Shown here in pieces: positions 11,117 through 63,087 of a DNA stretch of 64,000 nucleotides. The DNA is from a virus. The DNA lies in the IMG/VR virus record IMGVR_UViG_3300045988_134583, positions 1 through 64,000 of that record. One strand, written 5' to 3'. Within the stretch, counting starts at the first letter, position 1. The number at the start of each line of letters is the position of its first letter. The position numbers were made by a program, and so were the translations under genes. The notes below the pieces were generated by a model. The model did not search any database. It saw only the letters and a list, made by a program, of their open reading frames with translations, and was not told where the DNA came from.

Positions 11117-11752
11117 TTATTTCTTATCCCCGTACTGCCCGTAGATCGCAGCACTGACGGAAAACTCTATGCCGTACCGATCTTTCAGGTCGAACAGTTT
11201 CACCGTCTCGTTAAATATTTTATCGTATTCCGGAAGCCGCTCCGCAGGTATCTCATCCTTCGGTACGGCCTTTTCTTTGTGCAGACGCATCCCCATGGCC
11301 TTCCCTGCTACTTTGGCCGCCGCGCAGTAATGTTTCCTGTCGCCCAATCCAGCCTCGTAAAGGTATCTATTTCCCTTCTTCTGGTTCTCCCTTGACAACA
11401 TACGCAGAGCATCCGCTGCGCCCAATCCAGCGGCATTTCTAAGGGCCGGTAGGACTTCGTGGGTAATCCAGCGCTTGAAGGACTTGGCTTCGGGTTTACG
11501 GGAACCCAGGATCAGGGTATATAGGCCGGGTTCATTAACCACCGCCACGTTGGGATTGCCTCGTTGATTACCCTCATTTGAAATGAGGGTAATTATCTTC
11601 TCGTCCTCGTCCAGTCGCGAAATAGCTTGAGACGGATTCCTGATATCAAGAGCATTGCATACGTCAGCCGCTGCAAACCACGGTTCTCCATCGATCATGA
11701 CTGTTCTTACTTTTCCAAATTCAGGATGCTCAAAGATTTTGTTCGCTTGCAT
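11117..11752 (-). CDS. Bro-N domain protein (antirepressor-like)
   Basis: FEHPEFGKVRTVMIDGEPWFAAADVCNALDI ... EPGLYTLILGSRKPEAKSFKRWITHEVLPALR is the Bro-N signature. Confidence 0.8.
   Translation of the reverse strand: MQANKIFEHPEFGKVRTVMIDGEPWFAAADVCNALDIRNPSQAISRLDEDEKIITLISNEGNQRGNPNVAVVNEPGLYTLILGSRKPEAKSFKRWITHEVLPALRNAAGLGAADALRMLSRENQKKGNRYLYEAGLGDRKHYCAAAKVAGKAMGMRLHKEKAVPKDEIPAERLPEYDKIFNETVKLFDLKDRYGIEFSVSAAIYGQYGDKK
11568..11592. repeat. perfect 25-bp palindrome inside a Bro-N gene
   Basis: TTACCCTCATTT-G-AAATGAGGGTAA. Encodes TLISNEGN. Confidence 0.85.
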
Positions 11753-11769
11753 TGATTTTTCCTTTCTAT

Positions 11770-11780
11770 TATGCGCAGAG
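11770..11780 (+). repeat. TATGCGCAGAG motif copy D
   Basis: Exact 11-mer, 18 nt beyond the start codon of 11117..11752. Confidence 0.9.
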
Positions 11781-11961
11781 TTCTAAATGCGTTGATTGCG
11801 ACGCGCTTTCCGCAGACGGAGTACATTTGCGTACCCCATTGCTTGGCCGAATAGGTATACGGTGTTTTGCCGTACACCGGGTTTCGTTTGAATGACCATC
11901 GGTTAAATCGACGGTCATTTATTGTCAGCGCCTACGATACGGCATCCTCCCGTACCCGCCC

Positions 11962-12840
11962 TCACCCTTCCCTATCTTCTTCGCTTCCCCACTTCCTGTA
12001 CACGGTATCGCTGACGGAGATATCCAGCCCGAAACGCTCTTTGAATGACATAATCTCCACTACATCGTCCAGTATGGGCTGACGGTCTTTGAGCATGTCC
12101 GGGGACATGTCGCCCTTGTGCAACATTGTCGGAAGTCCTGCACGGTTGGAAACTGCCTTATCCGCTATGGTATTGGCCTTAATGTAGTCCTGCCTTGTTA
12201 GTTCTCTTGTTCCCTGGATCTCGTCACGCATCTTACGCATGGCTTCCTTCTGTTGCTCCTTGTCCATCATGCGGAAAACCTCAAAGCCTTCAAAGCCGCT
12301 CTTTTGTCGCAGGGTACGGAGCATGTTGTACACCCAGCGTCGGAACACCTTTGCTTCCTTCTTGCGGCTCATGAAGATAGCATCGTATACGGCAAGCTCG
12401 TTGGCGATCAAAAGCTCCTGCTGACCGCCGGAAGTAGGAATTAGCGCAGTAGACAATTCCGGGGCTTTATCCTCGCTCCCCTCGTTTGAAACGAGGGAAG
12501 ATATACATTTTCTATCGTATTTATACAGAGGAGTTTTTCTATCGCCGTCTGTACTTTTTGCAAGGGTATCGTTTGAAACGATACCCTTTATGCACTTCTT
12601 GTTATTTTTATTCTCATCATTTTTTACCAGTTCGCCAAGCTTTTCCGAAAGGGTATTGTTTGAAACAATACCCTTTATGCATCCATATTCATCTGAAAGC
12701 CTATGTGCAACATTGTAAGCTTGCAACCCCAGTGCGTCGCATATGTCCTTCAACACGCCCCACCATTCTCCGTCCTTCCACACAAACCGAATGTTATGAC
12801 CTGCCCAGTTTTCAACCTTAATTTCTGCCTTTGCCCTCAT
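11962..12840 (-). CDS. Bro-N domain protein split by three 29-aa tandem repeats (292 aa)
   Basis: Start at MRAKAEIK after GGAGG. Bro-N halves (NIRFVWKDGEWWGVLKDICDALGL ... ELAVYDAIFMSRKKEAKVFRRWVYNML) are separated by three CI(K/S)(G/S)(I/L)VSN... repeats. Confidence 0.7.
   Translation of the reverse strand: MRAKAEIKVENWAGHNIRFVWKDGEWWGVLKDICDALGLQAYNVAHRLSDEYGCIKGIVSNNTLSEKLGELVKNDENKNNKKCIKGIVSNDTLAKSTDGDRKTPLYKYDRKCISSLVSNEGSEDKAPELSTALIPTSGGQQELLIANELAVYDAIFMSRKKEAKVFRRWVYNMLRTLRQKSGFEGFEVFRMMDKEQQKEAMRKMRDEIQGTRELTRQDYIKANTIADKAVSNRAGLPTMLHKGDMSPDMLKDRQPILDDVVEIMSFKERFGLDISVSDTVYRKWGSEEDREG
12479..12676. repeat. three 87-bp in-frame tandem repeats, each centred on a perfect palindrome
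   Basis: Palindromes at 12479-12497 (CCCTCGTTTGAAACGAGGG), 12562-12588 (AAGGGTATCGTTTGAAACGATACCCTT) and 12648-12676 (AAAGGGTATTGTTTGAAACAATACCCTTT). Their centres are 87 nt apart. Confidence 0.85.
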
Positions 12841-13087
12841 GTGAGACCTCCATGTGTATCGATTGGATGTGATGCCCGAAAGCATAACAATCATTAGAAC
12901 AAAAAAGCCGGGATTTGGAAACTGAAACGCCCTGGTTCACAATTTTTCTACCTTTACAGCGAACACATTTTCGGTTATGCCGTTAATAGCGGGATGTACA
13001 TAGTACGAAATCGTACTAAAGAGCAGCCTTACGCATCGAAAACTGCAAAAATTAGTATAAGAGAGGGATAAAACCTCTCTTTTTCTA

Positions 13088-15494: not shown

Positions 15495-15785
15495 ATGAAT
15501 CTTATCGAAACACAGGAAAGAACCTTCAAAGAGTTTAAGGACGCAGTTTCTCAGGCCAACGAAAAAGTTGATAAAATCTACAGCAAGGGCGTTGACACCA
15601 TTGATCTGGTGCTGAACATCGAAACCGCATTGCGTTTCCTTGCAACGGACAAACTAAGGGACATGGACGAAGATGTATTCCGCATGGTCAGTCTGGTTCT
15701 GACAGGGGCAATGCGCATCGAGGAAGAACTACAGGGAATTGTAGATGCGGTCTATGACGTGGGAAGGAGCCTGACCAATGAGTAG
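15495..15785 (+). CDS. hypothetical protein (96 aa)
   Basis: AAAGGGA RBS. 8-nt overlap with the downstream antirepressor gene. Confidence 0.5.
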   Translation: MNLIETQERTFKEFKDAVSQANEKVDKIYSKGVDTIDLVLNIETALRFLATDKLRDMDEDVFRMVSLVLTGAMRIEEELQGIVDAVYDVGRSLTNE

Positions 15786-16767
15786 GGCTTTAACAATCTT
15801 CAACCGGGACATAATCCCCGTCTACACCACCAACGAAGGTAAGCAGATAGTTATAGGCCGAGAGCTGCATAGATGCTTGCACAGCAAATACCAATACTTA
15901 GACTGGTTCAAGAAGATGTGCTCTTATGGTTTTGTTGAAGGGCAAGACTACTTCCCCTACATCCCCTCTTCCGAAACAGATGGAAATGAATACAAAAGTA
16001 TTTTTTCAGAAAAAACTGAAAAAATCAAAAACCCCGAAGAACAGGAAAAAATTGGACGTGGCCGTCCTTCCCGAGACCACTATCTTACCTTCGATATGGC
16101 AAAGCACATTGCCATGATCCAGCGCACTCCCGAGGGATTTGCAATCCGTCAAAAGCTGTTGGAGCTGGAAGAACGTGTGCGTAACCAGATGGTCGCCCTT
16201 CCGCAAGACCTTCCCTCCGCATTGCGCAGACTGGCCGACACGGAAGAACAGAATCAGGCTCTCCGGTGCGCCAACAACCGCCTCCATTCCGAAGTGCAGA
16301 CGATGGAACACGAGATCGGCCTGATGGTAGATAAAGCGGACTTCTGCGACACCCTGCAAAACACGACGAACCTTTTCAGCATGAAGGAGCTGTCCGTGTA
16401 CCTGACGCAGAACGGCGTACCACTGGGCAGAACGCGGCTGATGGAACAGCTTCGTAAGGACGGCTACTTATGCAAGGGTGGGCAGTACCGCAACTCCCCG
16501 TCGCAGTTCTCTATCGACATGGGTCTGCTGATCGGGAGCATGACCACCTATAAGGAAGGGCGCAAGGTAATCCACTACACTTCCCCGAAGGCTACGGCAA
16601 AGGGCTTTGAATACTTCCTGCGCAAGTACGGAGCCGTCAAGGAGCATCACGCCGAGGACATTGCGAAGCTAAGAGCCGAAGCGGTCAAGGGATTGCCCGA
16701 GCCGAACAAGAAGCTGCTGCCTAAGCCGGAACCCCCGAAGAACCTTTACGGAAGCATCGACTTTTAG
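15778..16767 (+). CDS. phage antirepressor (AntA/AntB-like N-terminus plus KilAC-like C-terminus)
   Basis: N-terminal IIPVYTTNEGKQIVIGRELHRCL...YLDWFKKM. C-terminal FSMKELSVYLTQNGVPLGRTRLMEQLRKDGYL is KilAC-like. Confidence 0.75.
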   Translation: MSRALTIFNRDIIPVYTTNEGKQIVIGRELHRCLHSKYQYLDWFKKMCSYGFVEGQDYFPYIPSSETDGNEYKSIFSEKTEKIKNPEEQEKIGRGRPSRDHYLTFDMAKHIAMIQRTPEGFAIRQKLLELEERVRNQMVALPQDLPSALRRLADTEEQNQALRCANNRLHSEVQTMEHEIGLMVDKADFCDTLQNTTNLFSMKELSVYLTQNGVPLGRTRLMEQLRKDGYLCKGGQYRNSPSQFSIDMGLLIGSMTTYKEGRKVIHYTSPKATAKGFEYFLRKYGAVKEHHAEDIAKLRAEAVKGLPEPNKKLLPKPEPPKNLYGSIDF

Positions 16768-16856: not shown

Positions 16857-17021
16857 ATGAAACCCGTAAGCGAAAACCTGAAAAAGTGGTTGAAGGAATA
16901 CTACCCCGATAAGTACGACGAAGTACGTCTGGGCAAGGAAGGTTCCTTCACCCCGCAGATGCAGCTGGAATATCTGAAATGGTGCAGAGGACAACGGCCA
17001 GTAAAACGGAAATGGAAATAA
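16857..17021 (+). CDS. small hypothetical protein (54 aa)
   Basis: AGAAGGGAGGAAG RBS. Below the track cutoff. Confidence 0.35.
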   Translation: MKPVSENLKKWLKEYYPDKYDEVRLGKEGSFTPQMQLEYLKWCRGQRPVKRKWK

Positions 17022-17108
17022 ATTCAGGCCGACATCCGAAATTCCATGAACAAAACGACCGGATTATGCTATAATAATAGTATCGACAGGTGAAGGAGGA
17101 TTGCCCAT

Positions 17109-17306
17109 ATGGCCGATAAGAAGAACAGAGTAAAAATCACTTGGTCTGACATTGTAAACGAATGTGTGCGCACATACGAAAAAAATCGAAAAATAAAGCA
17201 GGAGAACACACTTACCGGGAGTATTATTGGTGACTCGTTCCTGTTTGATGCCCTGATGGGAAGAAATAATCGCAGCCGGGACGACGACAGAAAGCGCAGA
17301 AGATAA
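17109..17306 (+). CDS. small basic protein upstream of the integrase (65 aa)
   Basis: GAAGGAGG RBS. An excisionase-like position, but no motif supports that role. Confidence 0.4.
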   Translation: MADKKNRVKITWSDIVNECVRTYEKNRKIKQENTLTGSIIGDSFLFDALMGRNNRSRDDDRKRRR

Positions 17307-17323
17307 GGAAGCAGGAGTGCAGT

Positions 17324-18253
17324 ATGGACATTATCGAATTGCGGGACAGCTACATTGCATCCCTGAAAGCCGACAAGGCGCAGACTACGATTGAAGGGTA
17401 TGCGCGGACGATCAATTTGTTCCTTGCTTGGGCGGGAGACAAAAACGCAAAGCTCAATACCGCAACGATAATGGGCTGGCGCTCCCACCTTGCCGAGGAA
17501 GGCGACGGCGTTACGACGATCTCCCTGTACATGCAGCACATGCGGTACTGGTGCGAGTACATCAGCGCTATACAGGATGGATTTGTTATGCCTGATTTCG
17601 GCATTTTGAACCCAGATAAGCGCAGAGTGTCCGTAGCTAAGAAAAAGCCGTACAAGCACGTTCTGGGGCCTTCCGAGGTGATTGCTATTCTCAGTGCAGA
17701 CAGGCCGAGCAAATGCAGCACGGAGACATGGCCGAGGAATAAAGCGATCCTGACGTTATTCTTGACCGGCTCCATGCGCAATGCAGAGCTATGTTCTATC
17801 CGTCCCTGCGATCTGGACTGGGAATCGCATCAAATCCTTTTGGAGAATACGAAGGGCGGTATGCCCCGATATGCCGCCTTCCCCGCCATTGCGCAAAAGG
17901 CGGTAACGGAGTATCTGGAAAGCGGATACAGACCTAAAACGTTGAAGGATACAGACCCTTTGTTTGTCTCTTATCCGCAAGGGAATCCCTTCTGCTGGGG
18001 TGCGTTTGACCGGGATGTTTTAAGCTCCCTTGTAATGCGTCTGGTGCGCCTTATAACTGGCATTGATGGCATCCGCTCCCATGCGTTGAGACACGCTTCC
18101 GCATCTTTTATGCTGACGCACGATGTGCCGTTGGATGAGATTCAGCAGGCGTTGGGGCACAGCAATATAAACACTACAATGCGCTATGCTCAGAGGATCG
18201 TCAACAAGGGAGAAGTACGAAAGAGTGTGTTCGATGCAATAGCCGCAGTATGA
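17324..18253 (+). CDS. int: tyrosine site-specific recombinase (phage integrase, XerC/D-like)
   Basis: C-terminal HALRHASASFML ... LGHSNINTTMRYAQ (R-H-R-Y catalytic signature). N-terminal SAM-like domain. Confidence 0.9.
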   Translation: MDIIELRDSYIASLKADKAQTTIEGYARTINLFLAWAGDKNAKLNTATIMGWRSHLAEEGDGVTTISLYMQHMRYWCEYISAIQDGFVMPDFGILNPDKRRVSVAKKKPYKHVLGPSEVIAILSADRPSKCSTETWPRNKAILTLFLTGSMRNAELCSIRPCDLDWESHQILLENTKGGMPRYAAFPAIAQKAVTEYLESGYRPKTLKDTDPLFVSYPQGNPFCWGAFDRDVLSSLVMRLVRLITGIDGIRSHALRHASASFMLTHDVPLDEIQQALGHSNINTTMRYAQRIVNKGEVRKSVFDAIAAV

Positions 18254-18296
18254 ACTTACATGCTAATCCGGTGTGCGAAATTAGTGCAAAAGAAAA

Positions 18297-18320
18297 AGCC
18301 GTCCGTATGGGCGGCTTTAT
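18297..18320 (+). terminator. intrinsic terminator after int
   Basis: GCCGTCC-GTAT-GGGCGGC hairpin followed by TTTATT. Confidence 0.6.
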
Positions 18321-18355
18321 TCATTACGTCCACAGTTCACAGGCCGTGGTGTGTC

Positions 18356-18446
18356 TTTCATAAATCATCCGCGCTTGAAGCGGCGGAGCGCTTTTCATAA
18401 ATCATCCGTACTCAAAGTAGCGGGGCACTTTCCATTATCATTTATT
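18356..18446. repeat. 2.4 tandem 37-nt repeats with a compensatory hairpin
   Basis: Units TTTCATAAATCATCCGCGCTTGAAGCGGCGGAGCGCT and TTTCATAAATCATCCGTACTCAAAGTAGCGGGGCACT, plus the partial TTCCATTATCATT. Confidence 0.8.
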
Positions 18447-18938
18447 TCAGATTTTCGGATACTCCATGCATTTAACTTCAAGAAGGGCAAAGTCGCAGCA
18501 GCGTTGTTTTACCTTAATGTCCTGCGGGGTCAAATTCTCATCGGCTTTAAGAACTAAGGTTCTTAGATTTTTAGCCGTTTTTATTATTTCGTTTTCGTCC
18601 GCCGTGATTAACCTTTGCTGGTTTTGCAGCAGGTTTCTATAATTGATATCAGGCTCCTTCTGTATATCGAAATAAAGAAGTTCTGCGCTTGGAACGGGGA
18701 TCATATTATTGAAGTTTATCGCTCCGTATTTTCCCCCTCCTATCTTTCTAAAGTCTTTGGTGTTTTTCATTTTCAAATGCTTTTTCTTCGGTGAGGAAAG
18801 AGGTGCGTAGTATTCCAAATTTCCGATCTGCACCACAAAGCCGATGTATGGTCTCCGCTGACCCTTGTTTTCAGGAACCTTGGAATCGTAGCCCCTAAGA
18901 TAAGATACATAGGCATCTTTGATGTGGTAAAATACCAT
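18447..18938 (-). CDS. toxN: type III toxin-antitoxin system ToxN/AbiQ-family endoribonuclease toxin
   Basis: MVFYHIKDAYVSYLRGYDSKVPEN...RRPYIGFVVQIGNLEYYAPLSSPKKKH...NFNNMIPV matches the ToxN/AbiQ N-terminal signature. GGAGGGGAGA RBS. Confidence 0.9.
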   Translation of the reverse strand: MVFYHIKDAYVSYLRGYDSKVPENKGQRRPYIGFVVQIGNLEYYAPLSSPKKKHLKMKNTKDFRKIGGGKYGAINFNNMIPVPSAELLYFDIQKEPDINYRNLLQNQQRLITADENEIIKTAKNLRTLVLKADENLTPQDIKVKQRCCDFALLEVKCMEYPKI

Positions 18939-18952
18939 TCTCCCCTCCGCAT

Positions 18953-18976
18953 AAAAAAAGGGGGAATAAATCCCCC
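18953..18976 (-). terminator. intrinsic terminator between the antitoxin repeats and toxN
   Basis: Minus strand: GGGGGA-TTTAT-TCCCCC followed by TTTTTTTAT. Confidence 0.7.
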
Positions 18977-19100
18977 AACTTTTTTAGTTCCCCGCTTGTT
19001 GGTGGGGGGTCACCGCTTTTTTAGTTCCTCTCTCATGGTGGAGGCTCACCGCTTTTTCCGTTCCTCGCTTATTGGTGGAGGCTCACCGCTTTTATGTCTC
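18975..19100 (-). ncRNA. toxI: type III antitoxin RNA repeat array (ToxI/AntiQ-like), about 3.4 x 36-37 nt
   Basis: Plus-strand units begin at 18975, 19011, 19047 and 19084 (CACCGCTTTTT-AGTTCC-...-GGTGGAGGCT). Located directly upstream of toxN on the same strand. Confidence 0.75.
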
Positions 19101-19101
19101 T

Positions 19102-19130
19102 ATTATATGCAGTCAGTTCAATAAAAACAA
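19102..19130 (-). promoter_or_regulatory. promoter of the toxI-toxN unit
   Basis: Minus strand: TTGTTT, 17-nt spacer, TATAAT. Confidence 0.45.
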
Positions 19131-19162
19131 TAGGTTTTGGCAAAAAAATTTAGGAATTTTTA

Positions 19163-19201
19163 TCCTTTTTTGAAAAAAGAGGGCTTCAATACCGCAATGT
19201 C
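19163..19201 (-). terminator. terminator of the late/lysis operon
   Basis: Minus strand: GAGGGCT-loop-AGCCCTC followed by TTTTTTC, downstream of the holin stop. Confidence 0.55.
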
Positions 19202-19234
19202 TTTAGCCCTCCTTTCCTCGTCCCTTATAAATTA

Positions 19235-19450
19235 TTAGAGTACGCCGCCAAAATCCTTATTGTACTGTGCCGTGGAGATGCACAGGATAGCGCCCAGAAA
19301 TACGGTAGCGCCGTTGATAGTAGCTACGATTTGGTCAGCATAGGGAAAACCCCAAGTGTTGGCCAGAAGCGCATAGAAGGTTGCGACAGCGGGCAGTACA
19401 ATTATTACTACCCATTTTAGCACATCATATACACGATCAGGAAGTTTCAT
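19235..19450 (-). CDS. holin (Dp-1-like family)
   Basis: 71 aa with two TM segments (VLKWVVIIVLPAVATFYALL; GATVFLGAILCISTA), directly downstream of the endolysin gene as the last gene of the late operon. Confidence 0.65.
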   Translation of the reverse strand: MKLPDRVYDVLKWVVIIVLPAVATFYALLANTWGFPYADQIVATINGATVFLGAILCISTAQYNKDFGGVL

Positions 19451-19497
19451 TGCTTCAAATCCTTTCTTTAATTTGCTTTTTCTATGGATACACGCGA

Positions 19498-20280
19498 TCA
19501 GGCATCGATCATCTGCGTGTATTTTGGAATGTTGGAAATGTAGGCTTCTTGCCCCTTGTATAGGATTTTATACCAGCCCGTCTTTTCGTGCAAACCGAGA
19601 TACGGGAACGTGTCTCCCCTGTGTGCGGTTCCCAGCCTCTTGCTGGAAGCATATCCGTCTGCACGAACGTTGACGGAACCGCCTACTACTTTTACCTTCT
19701 TCTCGCAGACAACAGGTGGAGTATCCGGGGCTTCCGGCTCTACGGGCTTTATATCCCCCGTTATTTCGTCCTTAAACACCAGAGGTATTCCCCATTTGTG
19801 CCAGTACCGTTCTTTGAATTTAACACGCACTACGCCAGTCCTGCGGCCTTCTGCATGAATACACTCCGTATCGGAGATCATGTACCCTACATGGGATACA
19901 CGACCGTTTGCATTTTCCCGGAAGAGCCAGTACCCTTTCTTCGGTGCTTCGGTTTTCGGCACCATAGCGCAGCGGGAAGCCATAGTATTGGAGTTTACAT
20001 CCATCTTGTACAGCTTTTTCAGGTTATACAGCCAATATACTCCCAAGCCGGAACAGTCATAGGCATACAAAACAGTGGCTCCTGCATCGAATTTCTTCTT
20101 GCAGAACTTTTTTGCAGCCTCCGCATAGGTCATATTTGGATATCCGCCCGTGCGTTTTTCGCATTTATCTACCACCTGTTCATAGTTTTCAGGGGTAAGT
20201 TTCGTATGCTGCCCGCCCCAGAGATATGGTTGCCCAACCTGTTCTTTCAAATACTTTATAAAGTCGGTAAGGTTACTCAT
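19498..20280 (-). CDS. endolysin: NlpC/P60 peptidase plus C-terminal SH3 domain
   Basis: Start at MSNLTDF after GGAGGTGG. QPYLWGGQ...YDCSGLG catalytic Cys motif, SHVGYM His. SH3-like C-terminus VNVRADGYASSKRLGTAHRGDTFPYL...GWYKILYKGQEAYISN. Confidence 0.85.
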   Translation of the reverse strand: MSNLTDFIKYLKEQVGQPYLWGGQHTKLTPENYEQVVDKCEKRTGGYPNMTYAEAAKKFCKKKFDAGATVLYAYDCSGLGVYWLYNLKKLYKMDVNSNTMASRCAMVPKTEAPKKGYWLFRENANGRVSHVGYMISDTECIHAEGRRTGVVRVKFKERYWHKWGIPLVFKDEITGDIKPVEPEAPDTPPVVCEKKVKVVGGSVNVRADGYASSKRLGTAHRGDTFPYLGLHEKTGWYKILYKGQEAYISNIPKYTQMIDA

Positions 20281-20394
20281 TGCTCGTGACCACCTCCACA
20301 TATATGCCTGCCAGCGCAGAAAGATCGTGGTACAATGGTGTACCGCTGTCTCTCATGCAGACGATTCTTTATCCCGTTGAGGACTTCCCGTATA

Positions 20395-20658
20395 TCATCC
20401 ATCCGCAAGCGTCTCCAATCCGGTCATTATCTGGGCAATGTTATTCTCGCATTCAGTTACCCGTGTTTCGAGATTCAGTCCGGGGTCAGGTGTTTCCGGC
20501 TTGGGAAGCGGATCGTAAACATAGGATCCGTCCACATAGCGATTGTCGTAGATGTCCCCGGCCGGGAGGGTGTCCACCAGCACAGCGCCCTCTTTGGCGT
20601 ACTGGGCATATGTGGCGGATAAGATCCTCCCGTCCATATCAAGGTTGAGTGCGTACAT
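20395..20658 (-). CDS. hypothetical tail-fibre-associated protein (87 aa)
   Basis: Start at the internal Met overlapping the upstream stop (TGATG). Sits between the fibre and lysis genes. Confidence 0.4.
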   Translation of the reverse strand: MYALNLDMDGRILSATYAQYAKEGAVLVDTLPAGDIYDNRYVDGSYVYDPLPKPETPDPGLNLETRVTECENNIAQIMTGLETLADG

Positions 20659-37311: not shown

Positions 37312-37385
37312 TGGCAGGGATGGAAGGTATCGAACCTTCTGCATCCGGGTCAAAACCGGATATTCTCCCTTTGAACTACATCCCT
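37312..37385 (-). tRNA. tRNA-Gln (anticodon UUG), CCA encoded
   Basis: Hand-folded cloverleaf: acceptor AGGGATG/CATCCCT, D stem GTTC/GAAT, anticodon stem TCCGG/CCGGA with loop TTTTGAC, T arm GAAGG-TTCGATA-CCTTC, then G-CCA. Confidence 0.85.
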
Positions 37386-44938: not shown

Positions 44939-45014
44939 TGGCGGGAACGGTAGGTTTCGAACCTACAGCCTTCCGGTTAACAGCCGGATGCTCTACCTGT
45001 TGAGCTACGAACCC
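44939..45014 (-). tRNA. tRNA-Asn (anticodon GUU), CCA encoded, with two U-U mismatches in the acceptor stem
   Basis: Hand fold: D arm GCTC-AACAGGTA-GAGC, anticodon stem TCCGG/CCGGA with loop CTGTTAA, T arm GTAGG-TTCGAAA-CCTAC. Acceptor GGGTTCG/CGTTCCC has mismatches at pairs 4-69 and 5-68. Confidence 0.65.
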
Positions 45015-56147: not shown

Positions 56148-57011
56148 TTATGCGAGAGGATCTGCCTCCATGGTCTGGTCTATGGTAACAGCGGGTTCTT
56201 CGGGGACTTCTACGGCCTCTGTTACGATTTCGCCGCCCTTAACAACGCCGATAGATTCATCCGTTTCGAACGCACGAATGAGTTCCGTGGACATGATGCC
56301 CCATTTGGAAATGATCTGTCTGAGAAGGGTCTTACATCCCATGTCGTCAAACGCGGTGTACCAAAATGAAGAATATTTCCACATTTCCGACTGCGGGATT
56401 TCTCCCCTTTGCAGCTTTTCATACGCTTCCTTACTGAAAGCCTTTGAATATTTGTCCGCATGGGCAAGCATTTTCTGGTAAGACCAGTACATGGCCTTCC
56501 TAAACCCGTTAAGATATTCGAAGAAGCAGTAGTAGCCTATCGTCTTTGCTTTTTCTCTGGCTTCTTCATCCTCTATGAGGTTTACTTCGATTTCTTCTGA
56601 AAGCGGATCGAAGCTTACGAGTTCTCCTTCTTTGATGGGAAGAACGTTAATTTTCTTGTAATATCCGCTTCGAATAGCAAGTTGGACATATCCTTTATAC
56701 CCCATTTGAAAGGTGGCCACCTTGCATCCACGCTTTTTATCGTCATACGGAACCATGTAAAACATTCCGAGCTGGGGAGAGGGCGAAAGGTTGAGCGCTT
56801 CGCCCAGCAAACCGGCAGACAATATGGTGGATGCCTCACACTCTTGCAGTTTAGGATTTACGGAAACCGCCGAAGTGATGGAAGCTATGAACCTGGCCGA
56901 ACGCTTGGGATCTCCGATTGTCTGGTTGATGAGATTCTTGTAGCCTTCGCTTTGAATAGCTACGCTGAATTTGGGTCTCTGATTCTTGGTAAGAGAATTG
57001 TTAGTTGCCAT
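56148..57011 (-). CDS. recT: RecT-family single-strand annealing recombinase
   Basis: SILSAGLLGEALNLSPSPQLGMFYMVPY...FQMGYKGYVQLAIRSGYYKKI is the RecT signature. Confidence 0.85.
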   Translation of the reverse strand: MATNNSLTKNQRPKFSVAIQSEGYKNLINQTIGDPKRSARFIASITSAVSVNPKLQECEASTILSAGLLGEALNLSPSPQLGMFYMVPYDDKKRGCKVATFQMGYKGYVQLAIRSGYYKKINVLPIKEGELVSFDPLSEEIEVNLIEDEEAREKAKTIGYYCFFEYLNGFRKAMYWSYQKMLAHADKYSKAFSKEAYEKLQRGEIPQSEMWKYSSFWYTAFDDMGCKTLLRQIISKWGIMSTELIRAFETDESIGVVKGGEIVTEAVEVPEEPAVTIDQTMEADPLA

Positions 57012-57014
57012 TGA

Positions 57015-57233
57015 TTATGGCTCCTTTCTGTATAATTTAAGCCGTTTGGTAAGGGAAACAATCTGCTCTTGCAGCTGCTCAATCGTGGCCTGCTGTTTAA
57101 GGCATAGATCGTCCAGCTCTTTCAGTGTCTTGTCCTGATACTCGATAAGTGCTGCGGAAATCTCGCAGGCATTGAGAATATCCGTTATGCTGGTGGATTC
57201 CCGCAGCGTTTGAAGGAGAGTGAATTTGTTCAC
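57015..57233 (-). CDS. small coiled-coil protein (72 aa)
   Basis: ORF with tight coupling to its neighbours. Confidence 0.4.
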   Translation of the reverse strand: MNKFTLLQTLRESTSITDILNACEISAALIEYQDKTLKELDDLCLKQQATIEQLQEQIVSLTKRLKLYRKEP

Positions 57234-58102
57234 TTAACACTCCCGTACCGGATGCCATTCCGCAGAAGGAAGTCCCGCAGAGCTGCTTTCTGTGCATCGT
57301 TTACCCACACCCGGAAATCAATCTGCTGCAATGGCTTGGGTGTTTCCAGCACGTCCTCTTCAAAATCAACTTTATCCACAACGGCGTCAAGTTCTTCAAC
57401 TTCCTCCACGTCGGGGTTTGGTTGTTCCACAGGAGCCTGCGCCTTGGCCTGTTCCGCCTGACGGATGCGCTCTGCGGCTTCCTCTTCCCGTTTTCTGGCC
57501 GTTTCCAGTGTAGTGTTATGTCGGATAACATCAGCAATGGAAAGGGTCAAATAGTACCGCTGTACAAGCTCTATAGAGAAGGGAGAATCCATCTTGCGGA
57601 TAGTTTCCAGATCGTCCCGGATACCGTTCAGGCGGTCGCTGATGTCCGTTTCCACCTGCGCCATCTTGTAGGTACGGTTAAGCCACTTCGGATTCCAGAT
57701 TTTATCCAGAGAGATGTGTTCGGCCAATTCTCCGGCGGTAATGGCATAGAACTTCTCGATCTGAGACTGCTTTTCCTTGATCTCCGCGTCCTCGAAAGCC
57801 TTGACCTGTGTGTTGATATTATCGATGCCCAAATGGATGATGCCCGTGATCTCCTTCATCCGGGCTTCAAACTCCTTGTAGGGCTTCTCGCATTCCTTCT
57901 TAATGGCCTTGCGCTGATCTTCCAGCGCGGATTCCAGTTTACGAAGGTTGGCAAGATCCTTTTTCGCGGCAGTAACACCATCTGCGGTGACGAGGACGGA
58001 CTGATAAGGTTCCATTCTCTCGGCTATTTCTGCCTTCAACTGCTCCCAATTCCAGGAAATAGGCGTAGACTTAATAGGGGACACGATCATTTCAAGTGCC
58101 AT
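57230..58102 (-). CDS. DUF1351-like phage protein
   Basis: 290 aa, coiled-coil-rich, located between the exonuclease and RecT genes as in many Gram-positive phages. Confidence 0.55.
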   Translation of the reverse strand: MALEMIVSPIKSTPISWNWEQLKAEIAERMEPYQSVLVTADGVTAAKKDLANLRKLESALEDQRKAIKKECEKPYKEFEARMKEITGIIHLGIDNINTQVKAFEDAEIKEKQSQIEKFYAITAGELAEHISLDKIWNPKWLNRTYKMAQVETDISDRLNGIRDDLETIRKMDSPFSIELVQRYYLTLSIADVIRHNTTLETARKREEEAAERIRQAEQAKAQAPVEQPNPDVEEVEELDAVVDKVDFEEDVLETPKPLQQIDFRVWVNDAQKAALRDFLLRNGIRYGSVK

Positions 58103-58182
58103 AGCGTTCGATTCTCCTTATTTGATTTTCAATTTGTTCGGAAAGTGATGAAATGAGTAAGATGGGGTAACAAGTGATACAG

Positions 58183-58842
58183 TTAGATTTCGGGCAGGAT
58201 CAGGGGTGGGCGTTTGTCGGCTTCCACATATCCCCAGAACTTGGTTTCCTCTTTCAGGAGCCATTCCATGCCGTCGGCAACGTTCTGGTCGGTACGGTCT
58301 ATCCGATATTCCCGAACCACCCATTCATTCTGCCCCATAAGGAGCGCATACAGTATAACAAAATCCCATCCTGTGGCAAGGAGTTGGTGTACGGTCTGGC
58401 AGAAGTATCCCTGCGGGTAGCCGTCCTTCCATTCGTCCCATTGTGCCCTTGTAGTCAGTGTAGCGGTTTTGATTTCCAGTATGCCGTGGTTGGCTCCGTA
58501 ATGAGTCGGTGAATCCGTGTAAAGTTCTCCGTCCAGCGTGGCTCTCAGCCATGGCCGCTCCGAAAGATAGAGGATATCGAACTGGTTGTAGGAAAGCTGG
58601 TATTCCGGGTGCTTGACCTTGAACATTTCCCGCATAACCGGCTCCATTTTGTTGCCGAACTCGATGAACCTATTGTTTACGCGCTTGGATTTTTTGTGTC
58701 CAGCCATGATCTCCCAAAGCTCCTGATTGGTTTGCCACTTTGAGATTCCTACGGCTGCGGCTGCGCTGGATGCTCCGATTCCGGTAGTCCTTCCGGCCAG
58801 CCAGTCCTCTCTGTTTGTAAAGTGCAGTCTTTCAAGGGGCAT
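58183..58842 (-). CDS. YqaJ-like (lambda Exo family) recombination exonuclease
   Basis: WLAGRTTGIGASSAAAAVGISKWQTNQELW plus a PD-(D/E)XK-like DGE...EIK motif. Confidence 0.85.
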   Translation of the reverse strand: MPLERLHFTNREDWLAGRTTGIGASSAAAAVGISKWQTNQELWEIMAGHKKSKRVNNRFIEFGNKMEPVMREMFKVKHPEYQLSYNQFDILYLSERPWLRATLDGELYTDSPTHYGANHGILEIKTATLTTRAQWDEWKDGYPQGYFCQTVHQLLATGWDFVILYALLMGQNEWVVREYRIDRTDQNVADGMEWLLKEETKFWGYVEADKRPPLILPEI

Positions 58843-59090: not shown

Positions 59091-59899
59091 GCCGCATAAC
59101 TCCTGTAACCACGCATGAAGTAGCAGAGGTAATTCAACGCTTCCTGATCTTTCATTCCAACCCATGTGTGAGACATTTTCAGCTTCTTCCCAATCTCCCG
59201 CATAGGGATATTAAGACAGTAGTGCATGTAAACAATCTTCTTGCAATCTTCGGTAAGGTGTTTAAGGGAGTTTTCCAGATCGACCCGCAGATTGGAATAG
59301 TCCTCGAAGGGAGCGTCAGATGCGAGGGTATCCATAATGGTTTTCACGCCTTCCCGGTCATTGCAGATAGGAGCGTCCAGATAGGAAACGCCGACGTAGG
59401 AGGAAATGAGCAGATAGTAATCGTACTCAGACATTCCCATCTCATGAGCCACGGCCTCGTTAGCGGTTTTGGCATCGCCCTCTTTCAGCAGCGTGGAGAA
59501 TCGCTTGATTGCCTTACGGGCTTTGGCTCTGTCGTGCTCCGGAATATGCAGCTGAGCGCAGTTACGCTCGTAAACGGTGAACTCACCCTTGATCTTGTAA
59601 TAGGCGAAGGTGGAGAATTTAACGGAAGAATCCAAACTGAACTGGTCTACCGCCTTGCAAAGCCCCATGCACCCGGTCTGGATGCAATCTTCCCAATCGG
59701 GAGTACAGCTGCCGTAGTGGTCGTTTATATACTTGGCTACGAGGCGCATGTTCCCTTCGATGCACTTTTCTCTGGCCTGATCGTCCCCGGCGTGTGCGAG
59801 GCGGATAAGGCGCATGGATTCTTCGTTGGAGATAGAAGGATAATCTTTCAGGTCGATAAAGAACCTGTTTTCCATTTCGCGGTACTTACTCTTGCACAT
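59087..59899 (-). CDS. sigma-70 family RNA polymerase sigma factor (group 3/sporulation-sigma-like)
   Basis: Region 2: NMRLVAKYI...DCIQTGCMGLCKAVDQF...FSTFAYYKIKGE. Region 4 HTH: IPMREIGKKLKMSHTWVG. GGAGGAAAG RBS. Confidence 0.8.
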   Translation of the reverse strand: MCKSKYREMENRFFIDLKDYPSISNEESMRLIRLAHAGDDQAREKCIEGNMRLVAKYINDHYGSCTPDWEDCIQTGCMGLCKAVDQFSLDSSVKFSTFAYYKIKGEFTVYERNCAQLHIPEHDRAKARKAIKRFSTLLKEGDAKTANEAVAHEMGMSEYDYYLLISSYVGVSYLDAPICNDREGVKTIMDTLASDAPFEDYSNLRVDLENSLKHLTEDCKKIVYMHYCLNIPMREIGKKLKMSHTWVGMKDQEALNYLCYFMRGYRSYAA

Positions 59900-60665
59900 A
59901 TTGTCTGCTTTCCTCCGTAGCCAGAAATTTATTGACGAAATAAAGCTGCCCCTTCCCGGTAATGACGGGTGTCTTATTGATGATCGTGCCGGAAGGAGTG
60001 GAAACGGTTCTTTCCTTGATCTCCATCAATCCAAGCTCCATGCTGTACTGGGTAGGCATGTTCTTTGACTGCCCATCCTTCATAAGGTATCCGCTGCTTC
60101 TTAACCAATCGAACATCCGGGTTCGGCCAATGTCCACGCCGTTCTGACGGATGATCTTTGCCAGATCGCCTACGAGGATGGTGCTTTCGGAAGTACCTAC
60201 CGAATCAGCGAACAGGACTTTTGGAGCGTTCTCCTTCTCCCTTGCTTCCAACGCTTTGCGCTTTTCCGTTTCCTCTTTCAGGGCGGTAGCCAGCTTAATG
60301 AGGTAGTCGGGGTTGAGCAGTGCGGCTTCAAGAGTTTCGGGGGTAAGGTAGGCACCGTGTTTACGGATTGTGGGTAACACTTCATCAAATACCCAGCGTT
60401 CAAACTTCTCAGCGGTGGGGAGCTTACTATGCGTTATGAGACGGTATACATCGCCCTCTGCGATAAACAGCATTTCCTGTTCCCCGCCGTTTGTAGGGAT
60501 ACGCCGTTTTAGCGTACCCTTTGCATGACGAGCAACTGCTTCGTTTGGTCTACTGTATCCGAGCGCCCTCGCAACATCGGATCCGCAGAACAACGGCTTC
60601 CCGTTTTCCTCGATCGTTCGTACTTCACCAAACTGTTCATTACGGAATACTTGCATCTCTTCCAT
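59886..60665 (-). CDS. antirepressor (Bro-N plus KilAC domains)
   Basis: FRNEQFGEVRTIEENGKPLFCGSDVARALGY...YRLITHSKLPTAEKFERWVFDEVLPTIRKHG. C-terminal LVGDLAKIIRQNGVDIGRTRMFDWLRSSGYL. Confidence 0.8.
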   Translation of the reverse strand: MEEMQVFRNEQFGEVRTIEENGKPLFCGSDVARALGYSRPNEAVARHAKGTLKRRIPTNGGEQEMLFIAEGDVYRLITHSKLPTAEKFERWVFDEVLPTIRKHGAYLTPETLEAALLNPDYLIKLATALKEETEKRKALEAREKENAPKVLFADSVGTSESTILVGDLAKIIRQNGVDIGRTRMFDWLRSSGYLMKDGQSKNMPTQYSMELGLMEIKERTVSTPSGTIINKTPVITGKGQLYFVNKFLATEESRQYVQE

Positions 60666-61856: not shown

Positions 61857-62141
61857 CTATCCGGCTGTGCGGGCTTTTCTCTCCGCAGCGTCCTTTTTAA
61901 GCTGCTTGTCTGCAATGTGCAGGGTGTTCTCAATGTTCTTGAGTTTCCGGCGCATAAGCGTTTTTTCCGTGTCCTCCTGCATTGGTTCGGACTGATCGAA
62001 TATAGAGTCGGAGATATTGCCCAGAGTGACCGCATAGCCCTTTACGAGCGTTACAAGGGCTTTCATGTTCCGGGCATGTTCCGAGCAGGATCCTTTGTCG
62101 TCAAAGGTTACGATGTTGCCGTTCTTAATGATGATCTTCAC
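61857..62141 (-). CDS. hypothetical protein (94 aa)
   Basis: ORF with a 4-nt overlap to the upstream gene. Confidence 0.45.
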   Translation of the reverse strand: MKIIIKNGNIVTFDDKGSCSEHARNMKALVTLVKGYAVTLGNISDSIFDQSEPMQEDTEKTLMRRKLKNIENTLHIADKQLKKDAAERKARTAG

Positions 62142-62935
62142 TGGTTTTTACCTCCCTTAAAAATTGCTTTTCCGTTGATCCTGAAATCTTCGATAATGTT
62201 TCTGTAAATCTTGGAGAAATGGGCTTTGCCCTGCGGGGTAATCATCGTGCGCTTTCCTACATGGCCTGTAGATGCTTGGAAGTCTTTGAGGACGAAGTAA
62301 CCGGCGTTCTTATTGGCGTTAGGTCTGAACTCTCTCGTGCGGCCTGTAGTGCGGTAGATATATTCGCTATCCAGCAGGAGGTTGATAAAGGCGCGTTCCG
62401 GAAGTCCTATCTGCTTTGCGGTGTCCCGGAAGTTGCTGAGGGAAGCATCCGCATGAATGAAGCTATCGTAGTAATCGGCCTTGGGGAGCATCTGCTCGTT
62501 CTCGTATTGGAGCGCTGCCGTTTTCTTCCGTTCTTCCTTTAAGGCGGTAAGGAGCTGGATGCCAAACTCCGGGGAAGCGATCATCTGATCTACTACGTTG
62601 GGTGTGATGTATGCACCGTGCTTGCGGATGGAGGGGATAACCTCGTCGAATACCCAACGCTCGAATTTTTCTGCGGATGGGAGTTTGCTGTGTGCGATAA
62701 GACGATAGACATTTCCTTCTGTAATGAACTTCGCCTGCTGCTCTCTACCCATGCTGTCTATGACTGGGCAAATTGCCCACCCATCTTCCTTGCAGTGCAG
62801 CTTTATTGCCTTTGCAGTATCTGCATACCCGAGTGCCCTCGCAACATCTGTTCCGCAGAAAAGAATCTGTCCGTTTTTCTCGATCGTTCGTACAGAGCCG
62901 AAGTCGTTGTTCTTGAAGATTTGAATGTCTACCAT
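62138..62935 (-). CDS. antirepressor (Bro-N plus C-terminal DNA-binding-like domain)
   Basis: Start at MVDIQIF after AAAGGAGAAG. FKNNDFGSVRTIEKNGQILFCGTDVARALGY...YRLIAHSKLPSAEKFERWVFDEVIPSIRKHG. Confidence 0.8.
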   Translation of the reverse strand: MVDIQIFKNNDFGSVRTIEKNGQILFCGTDVARALGYADTAKAIKLHCKEDGWAICPVIDSMGREQQAKFITEGNVYRLIAHSKLPSAEKFERWVFDEVIPSIRKHGAYITPNVVDQMIASPEFGIQLLTALKEERKKTAALQYENEQMLPKADYYDSFIHADASLSNFRDTAKQIGLPERAFINLLLDSEYIYRTTGRTREFRPNANKNAGYFVLKDFQASTGHVGKRTMITPQGKAHFSKIYRNIIEDFRINGKAIFKGGKNQ

Positions 62936-62949
62936 TGATGCTTCTCCTT

Positions 62950-63087
62950 TTAGTCGTGTGTACACTCCCGCAGTATTTGCAGGATAAAGGCGTTCATCGT
63001 CAGTCCTTCATATGCGGCTTCACTCTTGATAATTTCATAAAGCCAATCCGGAACCGCTATTCCAATTCGTTTCTTGTTCGTCACCAT
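62950..63087 (-). CDS. ribbon-helix-helix protein (45 aa)
   Basis: MVTNKKRIGIAVPDWLYEIIKSEAAYEGLTMNAFILQILRECTHD. GGAGGTG RBS. Below the track cutoff. Confidence 0.45.
   Translation of the reverse strand: MVTNKKRIGIAVPDWLYEIIKSEAAYEGLTMNAFILQILRECTHD

Follow-up and report, generated by a model that had tools for sequence, protein, structure and literature searches.

A predicted ToxIN-family type III toxin-antitoxin module in an exchangeable accessory slot of a gut phage

As an RNA-protein toxin-antitoxin system acting in abortive infection, ToxIN is textbook material, but almost all of its studied examples are plasmid-borne. We asked what kind of module lies beside the integrase gene of a gut phage in which such a system had been suspected, how its RNA relates to known antitoxins, and what it may do for its carrier. 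The stretch of DNA analysed, called the window throughout, comprises 64,000 nucleotides (positions 1 to 64,000 of IMG/VR virus record IMGVR_UViG_3300045988_134583), and the module in question occupies the minus strand around a 163-codon gene at 18447-18938. A previous reading made from the sequence only had proposed a complete ToxN/AbiQ-type III module in canonical order with an antitoxin RNA that looked unrelated to ToxI. The first part of this proposal was borne out by Pfam, PADLOC and PDB searches, by fold comparison, by Tandem Repeats Finder (TRF) and by a terminator scan, and the second part was not supported, as described below. The identity of the locus as a ToxIN module appears hardly open to doubt. 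To the whole statement, that it is a functional ToxIN-family type III module with the mechanism set out below, carried as an accessory ('moron') cassette of a temperate-type phage, we assign a probability of about 0.75.

The open reading frame (ORF) at 18938-18447 on the minus strand encodes 163 amino acids and contains the peptides on which the sequence-only reading had relied. Its product matched the Pfam family PF13958 (ToxN_toxin) with 166.1 bits against a cut-off of 25 (E 9.5e-49), covering profile positions 1-159 of 159, and the PADLOC AbiQ model with an E-value of 9.1e-41. A sequence search of the PDB returned ToxN_Ec, ToxN_Bt and ToxN_Pa (7d8o, 4ato and 2xd0) at about 1e-18 and AbiQ at 5e-8, and nothing else of significance. 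The AlphaFold model, which was built on 55 homologs, reached a predicted local distance difference test score of 93.7 and a predicted template-modelling score of 0.88, and it has the ToxN fold, known from solved structures as a twisted six-stranded sheet with a kinked helix. Comparing it with the PDB by Foldseek yielded 4ato (template-modelling (TM) score 0.84), 2xd0 (0.80), 7d8o (0.78) and 4glk (0.75), the next match having an E-value of 0.16. By family and predicted fold, the ORF encodes a full-length ToxN/AbiQ-family endoribonuclease. Two further assignments were considered and rejected. Membership in the CptN/TenpN group, for which a model search had been proposed alongside that for ToxN/AbiQ, was discarded because Pfam listed only ToxN_toxin and a chance match to MAS20 at E<=1, PADLOC listed only AbiQ, and the folds retrieved were only those of ToxN/AbiQ proteins. 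Close orthology to AbiQ was discarded as well, AbiQ being the most distant of the solved relatives and the window protein a ToxN-like member of the family.

The catalytic equipment of the protein appears to be intact. From its structure and mutants, ToxN_Ec is known to use Lys33, Thr52, Ser53 and Lys55 as its active site and to hold the RNA by Tyr110 and Gln117 (PMC8860590). After alignment with ToxN_Pa and ToxN_Bt, both translated from their plasmids, K33, T52, S53, K55, Y110 and Q117 mapped to R29, S48, S49, K51, Y100 and Q107 of the window toxin. R29, S49, K51, Y100 and Q107 are invariant across the 55 homologs, and S48 is either Ser or Thr. Functional toxins with Arg for Lys or Ser for Thr at these active-site positions are on record (PMC8860590, PMC5086642): E. 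coli clusters 4 and 5 have Arg in place of Lys33 (PMC8860590), and Ser at the Thr52 position is the state of AbiQ, where it is Ser51 (PMC5086642).

The elements expected to control the toxin gene lie directly upstream of it on the same strand. A promoter-like site at 19102..19130 (-35 box TTGTTT at 19130-19125, a 17-nt spacer, and -10 box TATAAT at 19107-19102) was read by eye from the window letters, as was the ribosome-binding site, and predicts a transcript start near 19095. The promoter region is 94-97% identical in closely related phages (the sister phages compared below), also where other cargo takes the place of the module. The boxes and spacer named in the sequence-only reading are therefore legible and conserved in sister phages, but the site falls below the threshold of the promoter scan, which did not list 19102-19130 because the -35 box agrees at only three of six positions. 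Downstream of it, TRF detected a single array at 18979-19093 with a period of 37, 3.1 copies, 84% matches and a score of 167. It consists of unit 1 (AAAAGCGGUGAGCCUCCACCAAUAAGCGAGGAACGG, 36 nt, 19058..19093), unit 2 (AAAAAGCGGUGAGCCUCCACCAUGAGAGAGGAACUA, 36 nt, 19022..19057) and unit 3 (AAAAAGCGGUGACCCCCCACCAACAAGCGGGGAACUA, 37 nt, 18985..19021), which score 40.9 bits (E 4e-8), 38.5 bits and 35.0 bits, respectively, with the covariance model described below. The array closes with an A-run, AAAAAG, read directly at 18979..18984, with which a fourth unit begins and which would provide the 3' processing site of unit 3. The tandem array claimed earlier is thus real, but it comprises three full units and six bases of a fourth instead of about 3.4 repeats, and a unit that had been placed at 18975 runs into the terminator stem. 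Likewise, the A-rich stretch ascribed to every unit, AACTAAAAAAGCGGTG, is present at junctions 2/3 and 3/4, whereas junction 1/2 reads AACGGAAAAAGCGGTG.

Between the RNA and the toxin gene, the terminator scan returned an intrinsic terminator at 18953..18976 (GGGGGA-UUUAU-UCCCCC followed by U7), as the sequence-only reading had it. Its hairpin at 18976-18960 has six pairs, five of them G-C, with a 5-nt loop and a T7 tail. The ribosome-binding site GGAGGGGAG at 18940..18948 lies just 5' of the ATG at 18938, which is 40 nt from the end of the array. The predicted layout of promoter, repeat RNA, terminator, ribosome-binding site and toxin is the canonical type III order. The limits of the cassette follow from the sister phage with an empty slot (L130), which joins window position 19168 straight to 18321 and so defines an 846-bp insert at 18322..19167 on the minus strand, with a G+C content of 0.39-0.43, below the 0.50-0.55 of the flanks. 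According to the comparison of slot alleles, the insert ends in a 3' tail (18322..18446, minus strand) which is kept in alleles with ToxIN and in those with an orphan ToxI RNA and is absent from empty alleles and from those with a PBECR4 gene, the latter two rejoining the window at 18321. The tail includes two 16-nt direct repeats, CGGATGATTTATGAAA, at 18408-18393 and 18371-18356 on the minus strand, 37 nt apart and just past the toxN stop.

We then compared the repeat RNA across its relatives. From 94 collected loci encoding relatives of the toxin (80 from genomes and 14 from viral contigs), 88 have an array directly upstream on the toxin strand. Arrays were found by TRF in 80 loci, with 2 to 3.2 copies of 32-39 nt (6.3 copies in one locus) and about 3.1-3.2 copies as the commonest form, and they end about 30-120 nt upstream of the toxin. 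The covariance model of the unit added arrays at seven more loci, and four of the remaining six loci are short of upstream sequence. The repeat consensus of the clade is AAAAGCGGUGAnnCnCnACCAUnAAGUGGGAAC, with AAAAAGC at the unit start nearly invariant. In the 64-kb window, this model, whose training set included the window units, found only the three sites (E 4e-8 to 1e-6; next best E 1.2).

Each window unit can pair into stem 1 (GGUG/CACC) and stem 2 (CCUC/GAGG in the first two units), with loops of 2, 0-1 and 7 nt. Pair counting on a MAFFT alignment (A2) was dropped, as loops of differing length put the 3' strand of stem 2 out of register, and the units were realigned by the covariance model. 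In the resulting alignment of 121 distinct units, which was fitted to stem 2, 92.2% of the pseudoknot pairs are formed, compared to 41-58% with slid partners; stem 1 (columns 7-10 with 17-20) is paired to 92.8% and stem 2 (columns 13-16 with 31-34) to 91.6%. None of 500 shuffles matched either the observed pairing or the observed covariation score. Changes on both sides occur in six of the eight pseudoknot pairs, and three of the four stem-2 pairs alternate between U-A and C-G in 20-26 distinct units. The window itself contains such a case: all three units retain both stems, and stem 2 of unit 3 reads CCCC/GGGG, a compensatory change from U-A to C-G relative to units 1 and 2 at a pair that also covaries family-wide (columns 15/32). 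The units are therefore predicted to form a two-stem H-type pseudoknot, backed by covariation. A search for this structure had been recommended in the sequence-only reading, and both stems found support in covariation, nested folding being uninformative.

The same reading had regarded the repeat as unrelated to ToxI and possibly as a new antitoxin RNA family, which the comparisons with known ToxI sequences make very improbable. ToxI RNAs of Group I have two stems of 3-4 bp, a short loop 2a-1b and a loop 1b-2b of at most 7 nt (PMC3401426), and the window unit follows this pattern of stems and loops. The ToxI unit of Pectobacterium atrosepticum (ToxI_Pa), which we verified against plasmid pECA1039 before alignment, aligns to the clade without internal gaps along GGTGA..CTACC..TAAGTG and has 21 of 36 positions in common with typical clade units. 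Unit length, stem order and loop lengths thus all agree with Group I (PMC3401426). A search model built solely from the units of this clade reached the ToxI of Bacillus thuringiensis (ToxI_Bt) with 23.2 bits (E 5.9e-5), phage phiFN37 with 16 bits (E 0.006) and phage D-1873 with 12-14 bits (E 0.02-0.07). The notion of a new family could draw on two results: the same model matched ToxI_Pa only locally, at five periodic sites with 7.3 bits and an E-value of 1.6 per unit, and the Rfam family RF02519 (ToxI; gathering score 50 bits) gave no match at the locus even at E<=10. However, RF02519 found the B. thuringiensis array only (59 bits) and missed ToxI_Pa and the Lactococcus array as well as the window, so the missing match reflects the narrowness of that family and is no evidence of an unrelated RNA. 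Moreover, the clade includes the loci of Ruminococcus torques ATCC 27756 (L023, 57% protein identity) and Ruminococcus sp. 5_1_39BFAA (L005, 61%), which were catalogued as toxIN in 2012 (PMC3401426). The window repeats are accordingly placed, by sequence and predicted architecture, in a ToxI clade.

The model also matched the arrays of the Lactococcus plasmid pUCCL632E with 47-50 bits (E ~1e-11 to 1e-12) and of the Clostridioides phage pCD1602_4 with 42-45 bits (E ~1e-10 to 1e-11). These arrays (L097, 1341-1446, and L100, 2316-2423, the latter from the 132-kb pCD1602_4) are full members of the clade at 42-50 bits. The toxins of pUCCL632E and pCD1602_4 are only 46-49% identical to that of the window, the RNA being more conserved than the protein across hosts.

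From ToxIN_Pa, ToxIN_Bt, ToxIN_Ec and AbiQ (PMC5086642, PMC8860590; also Guegler and Laub 2021, as cited in PMC12283969), we infer processing in the A-runs, ring assembly, the trigger and the exclusion phenotype as follows. One promoter would give rise to a transcript beginning with the three ToxI units. The terminator would stop most of these transcripts, leaving the RNA in excess, and occasional read-through would provide toxN mRNA. ToxN, as a metal-independent endoribonuclease, would cut the precursor in the conserved A-runs into units of 36-37 nt, each folding into an H-type pseudoknot whose single-stranded tails would bind two ToxN, closing an inactive ring. Because the RNA would be labile and in need of constant resynthesis, a superinfecting phage that disturbs or shuts down host transcription would set ToxN free; the free enzyme would cleave A-rich RNAs and abort the infection, protecting the lysogen population and the resident phage. 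Cleavage specificities of A/AAAA and A/AAA were reported for ToxN_Bt and AbiQ (PMC5086642), and the predicted A-run boundary of the window units fits these better than AA/AU. The mechanism is consistent with every feature tested.

Several observations weigh against this interpretation of the locus. With its weak -35 box, the site at 19102-19130 goes unreported by the promoter scan. The residues W57, F88 and N79 of ToxN_Pa and ToxN_Ec, which contact the RNA, are not conserved but replaced by K53, N78 and G69, so that cleavage may occur at another motif and the complex may have another stoichiometry; that residues contacting the cognate RNA are not conserved is nevertheless expected because specificity varies between systems. 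The fitting of the covariation alignment to stem 2 somewhat inflates the pairing figures, stem 1 having been outside the model. Nested folding, whether of the whole array or of single units, gave energies no better than those of shuffled sequences (z -0.7 to +0.2), which is uninformative because the structure is a pseudoknot, and covariation was used instead. Toxicity, neutralisation, processing and phage exclusion are all properties that we infer from the characterised relatives, and the setting for exclusion is assumed, since neither the integrated state nor the host was observed.

The genetic surroundings identify the carrier. Matches to phrog and Pfam families agree with the earlier placement of the module in a phage and adjoining the integrase: a tyrosine integrase gene (17324..18253, plus strand; phrog_1 4e-34, PF00589 3.5e-24) converges with toxN, and on the other side lie genes for a Dp-1-type holin (19235..19450, minus strand; phrog_881 8.7e-24, PF16938 4.7e-23) and an NlpC/P60 and SH3 lysin (19498..20301, minus strand; PF00877, PF08239). 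Other genes of the window code for tail proteins, a tape measure and a portal protein, DnaC/DnaD-type replication proteins, RecT/RecE, a sigma factor and several Ant paralogs. The integrase and the Ant-type regulators mark the carrier, as judged from its gene content, as temperate-type. The exact ToxN sequence occurred in 73 blocks of the assembly collection, on phage contigs and in the same slot everywhere shown, and the exact holin sequence in 385 blocks. All contigs read with either of them are phage-only and 52-75 kb long, and several of about 74 kb break at different points, pointing to a gut-metagenome phage whose genome of about 74 kb assembles as a circle. Around the contigs read, we saw neither host DNA nor attachment (att) sites, and no block, including the 385 with the holin, had a contig of more than 200 kb, so that the prophage state named in the sequence-only reading is putative. 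A scan of 30 proteins, which was not exhaustive, showed no partition genes of the ParA/ParB type. Megablast of 17000-20400 against GenBank phages gave no match, and single-protein scans of IMG/VR with ToxN, integrase and PBECR4 did not find the phage lineage, the integrase scan giving long matches only to relatives at <=28% identity.

Some further features of these phages were recorded. Two tRNA genes lie in the structural and packaging region (37315-37385 and 44942-45014, minus strand; Rfam tRNA 59.8 and 66.3 bits), and a PAPS-reductase-like gene lies at 1255-2001. At least five Ant/Bro-type anti-repressor paralogs are present (11117-12894, 15778-16767, 59886-60665 and 62138-62965), which is unusually many. 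The RecT/RecE pair at 56148-58842 could promote cassette exchange. In one sister phage (L103, 19842-20042), a 66-aa protein has a precomputed match to PF22147 (AcrIC5, an anti-CRISPR family), suggesting that related phages also carry counter-defence genes.

Comparing the sister phages revealed that the slot between holin and integrase is a swap site, which holds the ToxIN cassette, a diverged ToxIN cassette, a pair of drum RNA and PBECR4 gene, drum RNA with ToxI units and no toxin, or nothing. In the phage with the diverged cassette (L101, 9800-10500 compared to 19100-18440 of the window), identity to the window is 95-99% for the tail, lysin and holin proteins and 94-96% for the promoter, but only 71% for ToxN. 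Its divergence begins exactly at the first repeat, after the conserved promoter, and the RNA-toxin pair is therefore the variable unit. The ToxI units of L101 have CCCC/GGGG, both strands of stem 2 being changed relative to the window. A pair that co-evolves and determines specificity would be expected to leave such a pattern, which may have been caused either by replacement of the cassette or by fast co-evolution of the pair.

In two other sister phages (L131, 4300-4700, and L132, 4295-4695), neither terminator nor toxN nor PBECR4 is present, but the promoter, a drum leader and three ToxI units that preserve both stems have been kept. Their deletion corresponds exactly to 18978-18444 of the window, 19097-18979 being joined to 18443. 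Loss of the toxin first is simply the viable way for a toxin-antitoxin pair to decay. The arrays could be decoy antitoxins or products of simple decay by toxin loss, between which sequence alone cannot decide. As a precedent for decoys, antitoxin-only arrays in phage PhiTE neutralise resident ToxN and allow the phage to escape (PMC3475682). A second, independent case of a lost toxin with a kept antitoxin was seen on an unrelated JGI contig (L143, JAEEGL016630634.1, 1330-1130, minus strand), where an intact three-unit ToxI array and its terminator precede a toxN gene cut to 17 codons. A scan of JGI metagenome data with the 21-nt ToxI core returned only two unrelated contigs.

In further sister phages (L125, 4300-5210; also L126, L128, L129 and L133), the slot contains a gene for a 206-aa PBECR4 protein (PF18813, 68 bits). 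This cassette is arranged as the same promoter region with a better -35 box (TTGAAA), a non-repetitive leader of about 210 nt, a terminator-like hairpin and PBECR4, and its leader contains the Rfam drum RNA (RF02958) at 80.9 bits, compared to a gathering score of 43. We found three further PBECR4 lineages with 47-54% protein identity and different neighbours (L134/L135, L137/L139 and L140/L142). In all four lineages tested, a same-strand drum RNA, scoring 68-81 bits, lies upstream of PBECR4, with 45-50 nt between its end and the gene. The drum motif was described in 2017 as an orphan bearing a terminator at its 3' side, its association with neighbouring proteins being unexplained (PMC5737381), and PBECR domains are predicted RNases (PMC5512222). 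Our literature search found no paper tying drum RNA to a toxin-antitoxin function.

These alleles, including that of the window, may be read together as traces of an arms race between RNAs and RNases that sister phages conduct at one slot equipped with a promoter, an interpretation which we put forward tentatively and, in all its parts jointly, consider rather unlikely. The co-diverging toxins and RNAs of the ToxIN alleles would set exclusion specificities; drum RNA, terminator and PBECR4 would constitute an unrecognised type III-like pair with a non-repetitive antitoxin RNA; and the alleles with drum RNA and three ToxI units but no toxin would be transcribed as decoy antitoxins in the manner of PhiTE. 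If true, the second part would assign a function to the drum motif, so far an orphan, and the decoys would let a phage superinfect lysogens of its siblings bearing ToxIN or PBECR4.

As the main biological role of the window module, we rate superinfection exclusion by lysogens as the likeliest because the slot behaves like a defence hotspot, and by analogy with known systems we hold phage exclusion to be reasonably probable. A different main task, which is possible though not favoured, would be addiction: post-segregational killing would stabilise the phage genome, especially in an episomal prophage. ToxIN_Pa and ToxIN_Bt do stabilise plasmids (PMC5086642; Short 2015, as cited in PMC12283969), and of the four ToxN homologs among GenBank phage records, three (in D-1873, pCD1602_4 and ES-S-0107-01) come from plasmid-like or very large prophage records. 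The circular assembly of about 74 kb, the missing host flanks in the contigs read and the lack of contigs above 200 kb in the blocks would fit an episome as well. However, an integrase gene adjoins the cassette, the 30 proteins scanned included no partition protein of the ParA/ParB type, and the cassette occupies a classic slot for lysogenic conversion. Since natural alleles with an empty slot or an alternative cargo exist, the phage does not depend on the cassette. The two roles are not mutually exclusive.

The dispensability of the cassette bears equally on the idea that the RNase serves the lytic programme of its own carrier by turning over mRNA like RegB of phage T4, with the RNA acting as a timing brake. 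The position of toxN directly after the lysis genes on the same strand would suit this idea, and phage RNases of the BECR type such as RegB do act in this way (PMC5512222). The cassette has its own predicted promoter, though, the holin terminator lies between it and the late operon, and all characterised ToxN/AbiQ systems are toxin-antitoxin or abortive-infection modules, so that we regard a lytic role as highly unlikely. Least probable of all is that the module is a relic in decay and without function. The family does lose toxins, as seen from the precise toxN deletion in L131 and L132 and the 17 remaining codons in L143, but the ORF of the window is full length with its catalytic residues intact, both stems are kept in all three units, and the identical protein recurs in many samples. 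We therefore retain the interpretation as a functional ToxIN module with phage exclusion as its probable main role.

The window module adds no new mechanism, and phage-borne toxIN has precedent but is rare: ToxN homologs are present in only 4 of 50,697 GenBank phage records, as opposed to 212 plasmids, and before 2025 D-1873 was the sole reported phage-borne toxIN (PMC12283969; D-1873 also in PMC3401426). What the locus shows is a widespread human-gut phage with the module in its slot for lysogenic conversion. More novel material lies outside the window in the sister phages, namely the pairing of drum RNA with PBECR4 and the antitoxin-only alleles. Because these phages differ only in the slot, they represent a natural isogenic series, which could show whether competing phages are kept out by type III systems of prophages, how the specificity between toxin and RNA evolves, and whether antitoxin-only alleles act as counter-defence.

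Among the characterised systems, ToxIN_Bt of B. thuringiensis plasmid pAW63 (PDB 4ATO; RF02519) has the toxin with the best fold match to that of the window (TM 0.84, 31% identity). Both have the same operon order with about three repeats and the same repeat architecture (A-run, GGUG, 4-nt strand of stem 2, UACC, loop and complementary strand), and the A-run at the unit boundaries of the window suits the A/AAAA specificity of ToxIN_Bt (PMC5086642). They differ in unit length (34 nt in ToxIN_Bt, 36-37 nt in the window, where loop 1b-2b is longer) and in the C-terminal extension of ToxN_Bt, which the window toxin lacks (32% identity in the sequence alignment). ToxIN_Bt resides on a conjugative plasmid, whereas the window module is phage-borne and unmatched by RF02519. 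The R. torques and Ruminococcus loci (PMC3401426) share nearly the same repeat consensus, AAAAAGCGGUGAGUCUCCACCAUAAAGAGAGAACC, and the setting in gut Firmicutes, but are located on chromosomal scaffolds of isolates, are known from sequence alone, and have UCUC/GAGA or UCCC/GGGA as stem 2 instead of the CCUC/GAGG of the window.

The toxins of ToxIN_Pa (pECA1039; 2XD0/2XDD) and ToxIN_Ec (7D8O) have the same fold (TM 0.78-0.80) and the same catalytic positions as the window toxin. ToxIN_Pa shares with the window clade a 36-nt unit that aligns gap-free along the core GGUGA..CUACC..UAAGUG and a ratio of RNA to toxin controlled by a terminator. It has 5.5 repeats compared to three in the window and is cut at AA/AU, a motif absent from the window units, which have AAAAAG instead; its W57, F88 and N79 are not conserved in the window, and the covariance match is weak and local (E 1.6). 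AbiQ/antiQ of Lactococcus lactis plasmid pSRQ900 (4GLK) belongs to the same family and fold (TM 0.75); its residue corresponding to ToxN T52 is likewise Ser, it comprises about 2.8-3 repeats and its cleavage falls within A-rich sequence, but AbiQ is the most distant solved relative at a phmmer E-value of 5e-8 and 25% identity. The pseudo-ToxI of PhiTE (PMC3475682) is a parallel for the sister phages L131 and L132, not for the window itself. The nearest parallels in terms of the carrier are Clostridium phage D-1873, a plasmid prophage, and Fusobacterium phage phiFN37, in whose record the ToxN gene is annotated. Both carry toxIN with a ToxI-like array upstream, and their toxins are 34-40% identical to that of the window. 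D-1873 is an episomal converting phage and phiFN37 has the gene within its structural region; unlike these, the window module occupies the accessory slot between lysis genes and integrase of an integrase-bearing phage of about 74 kb.

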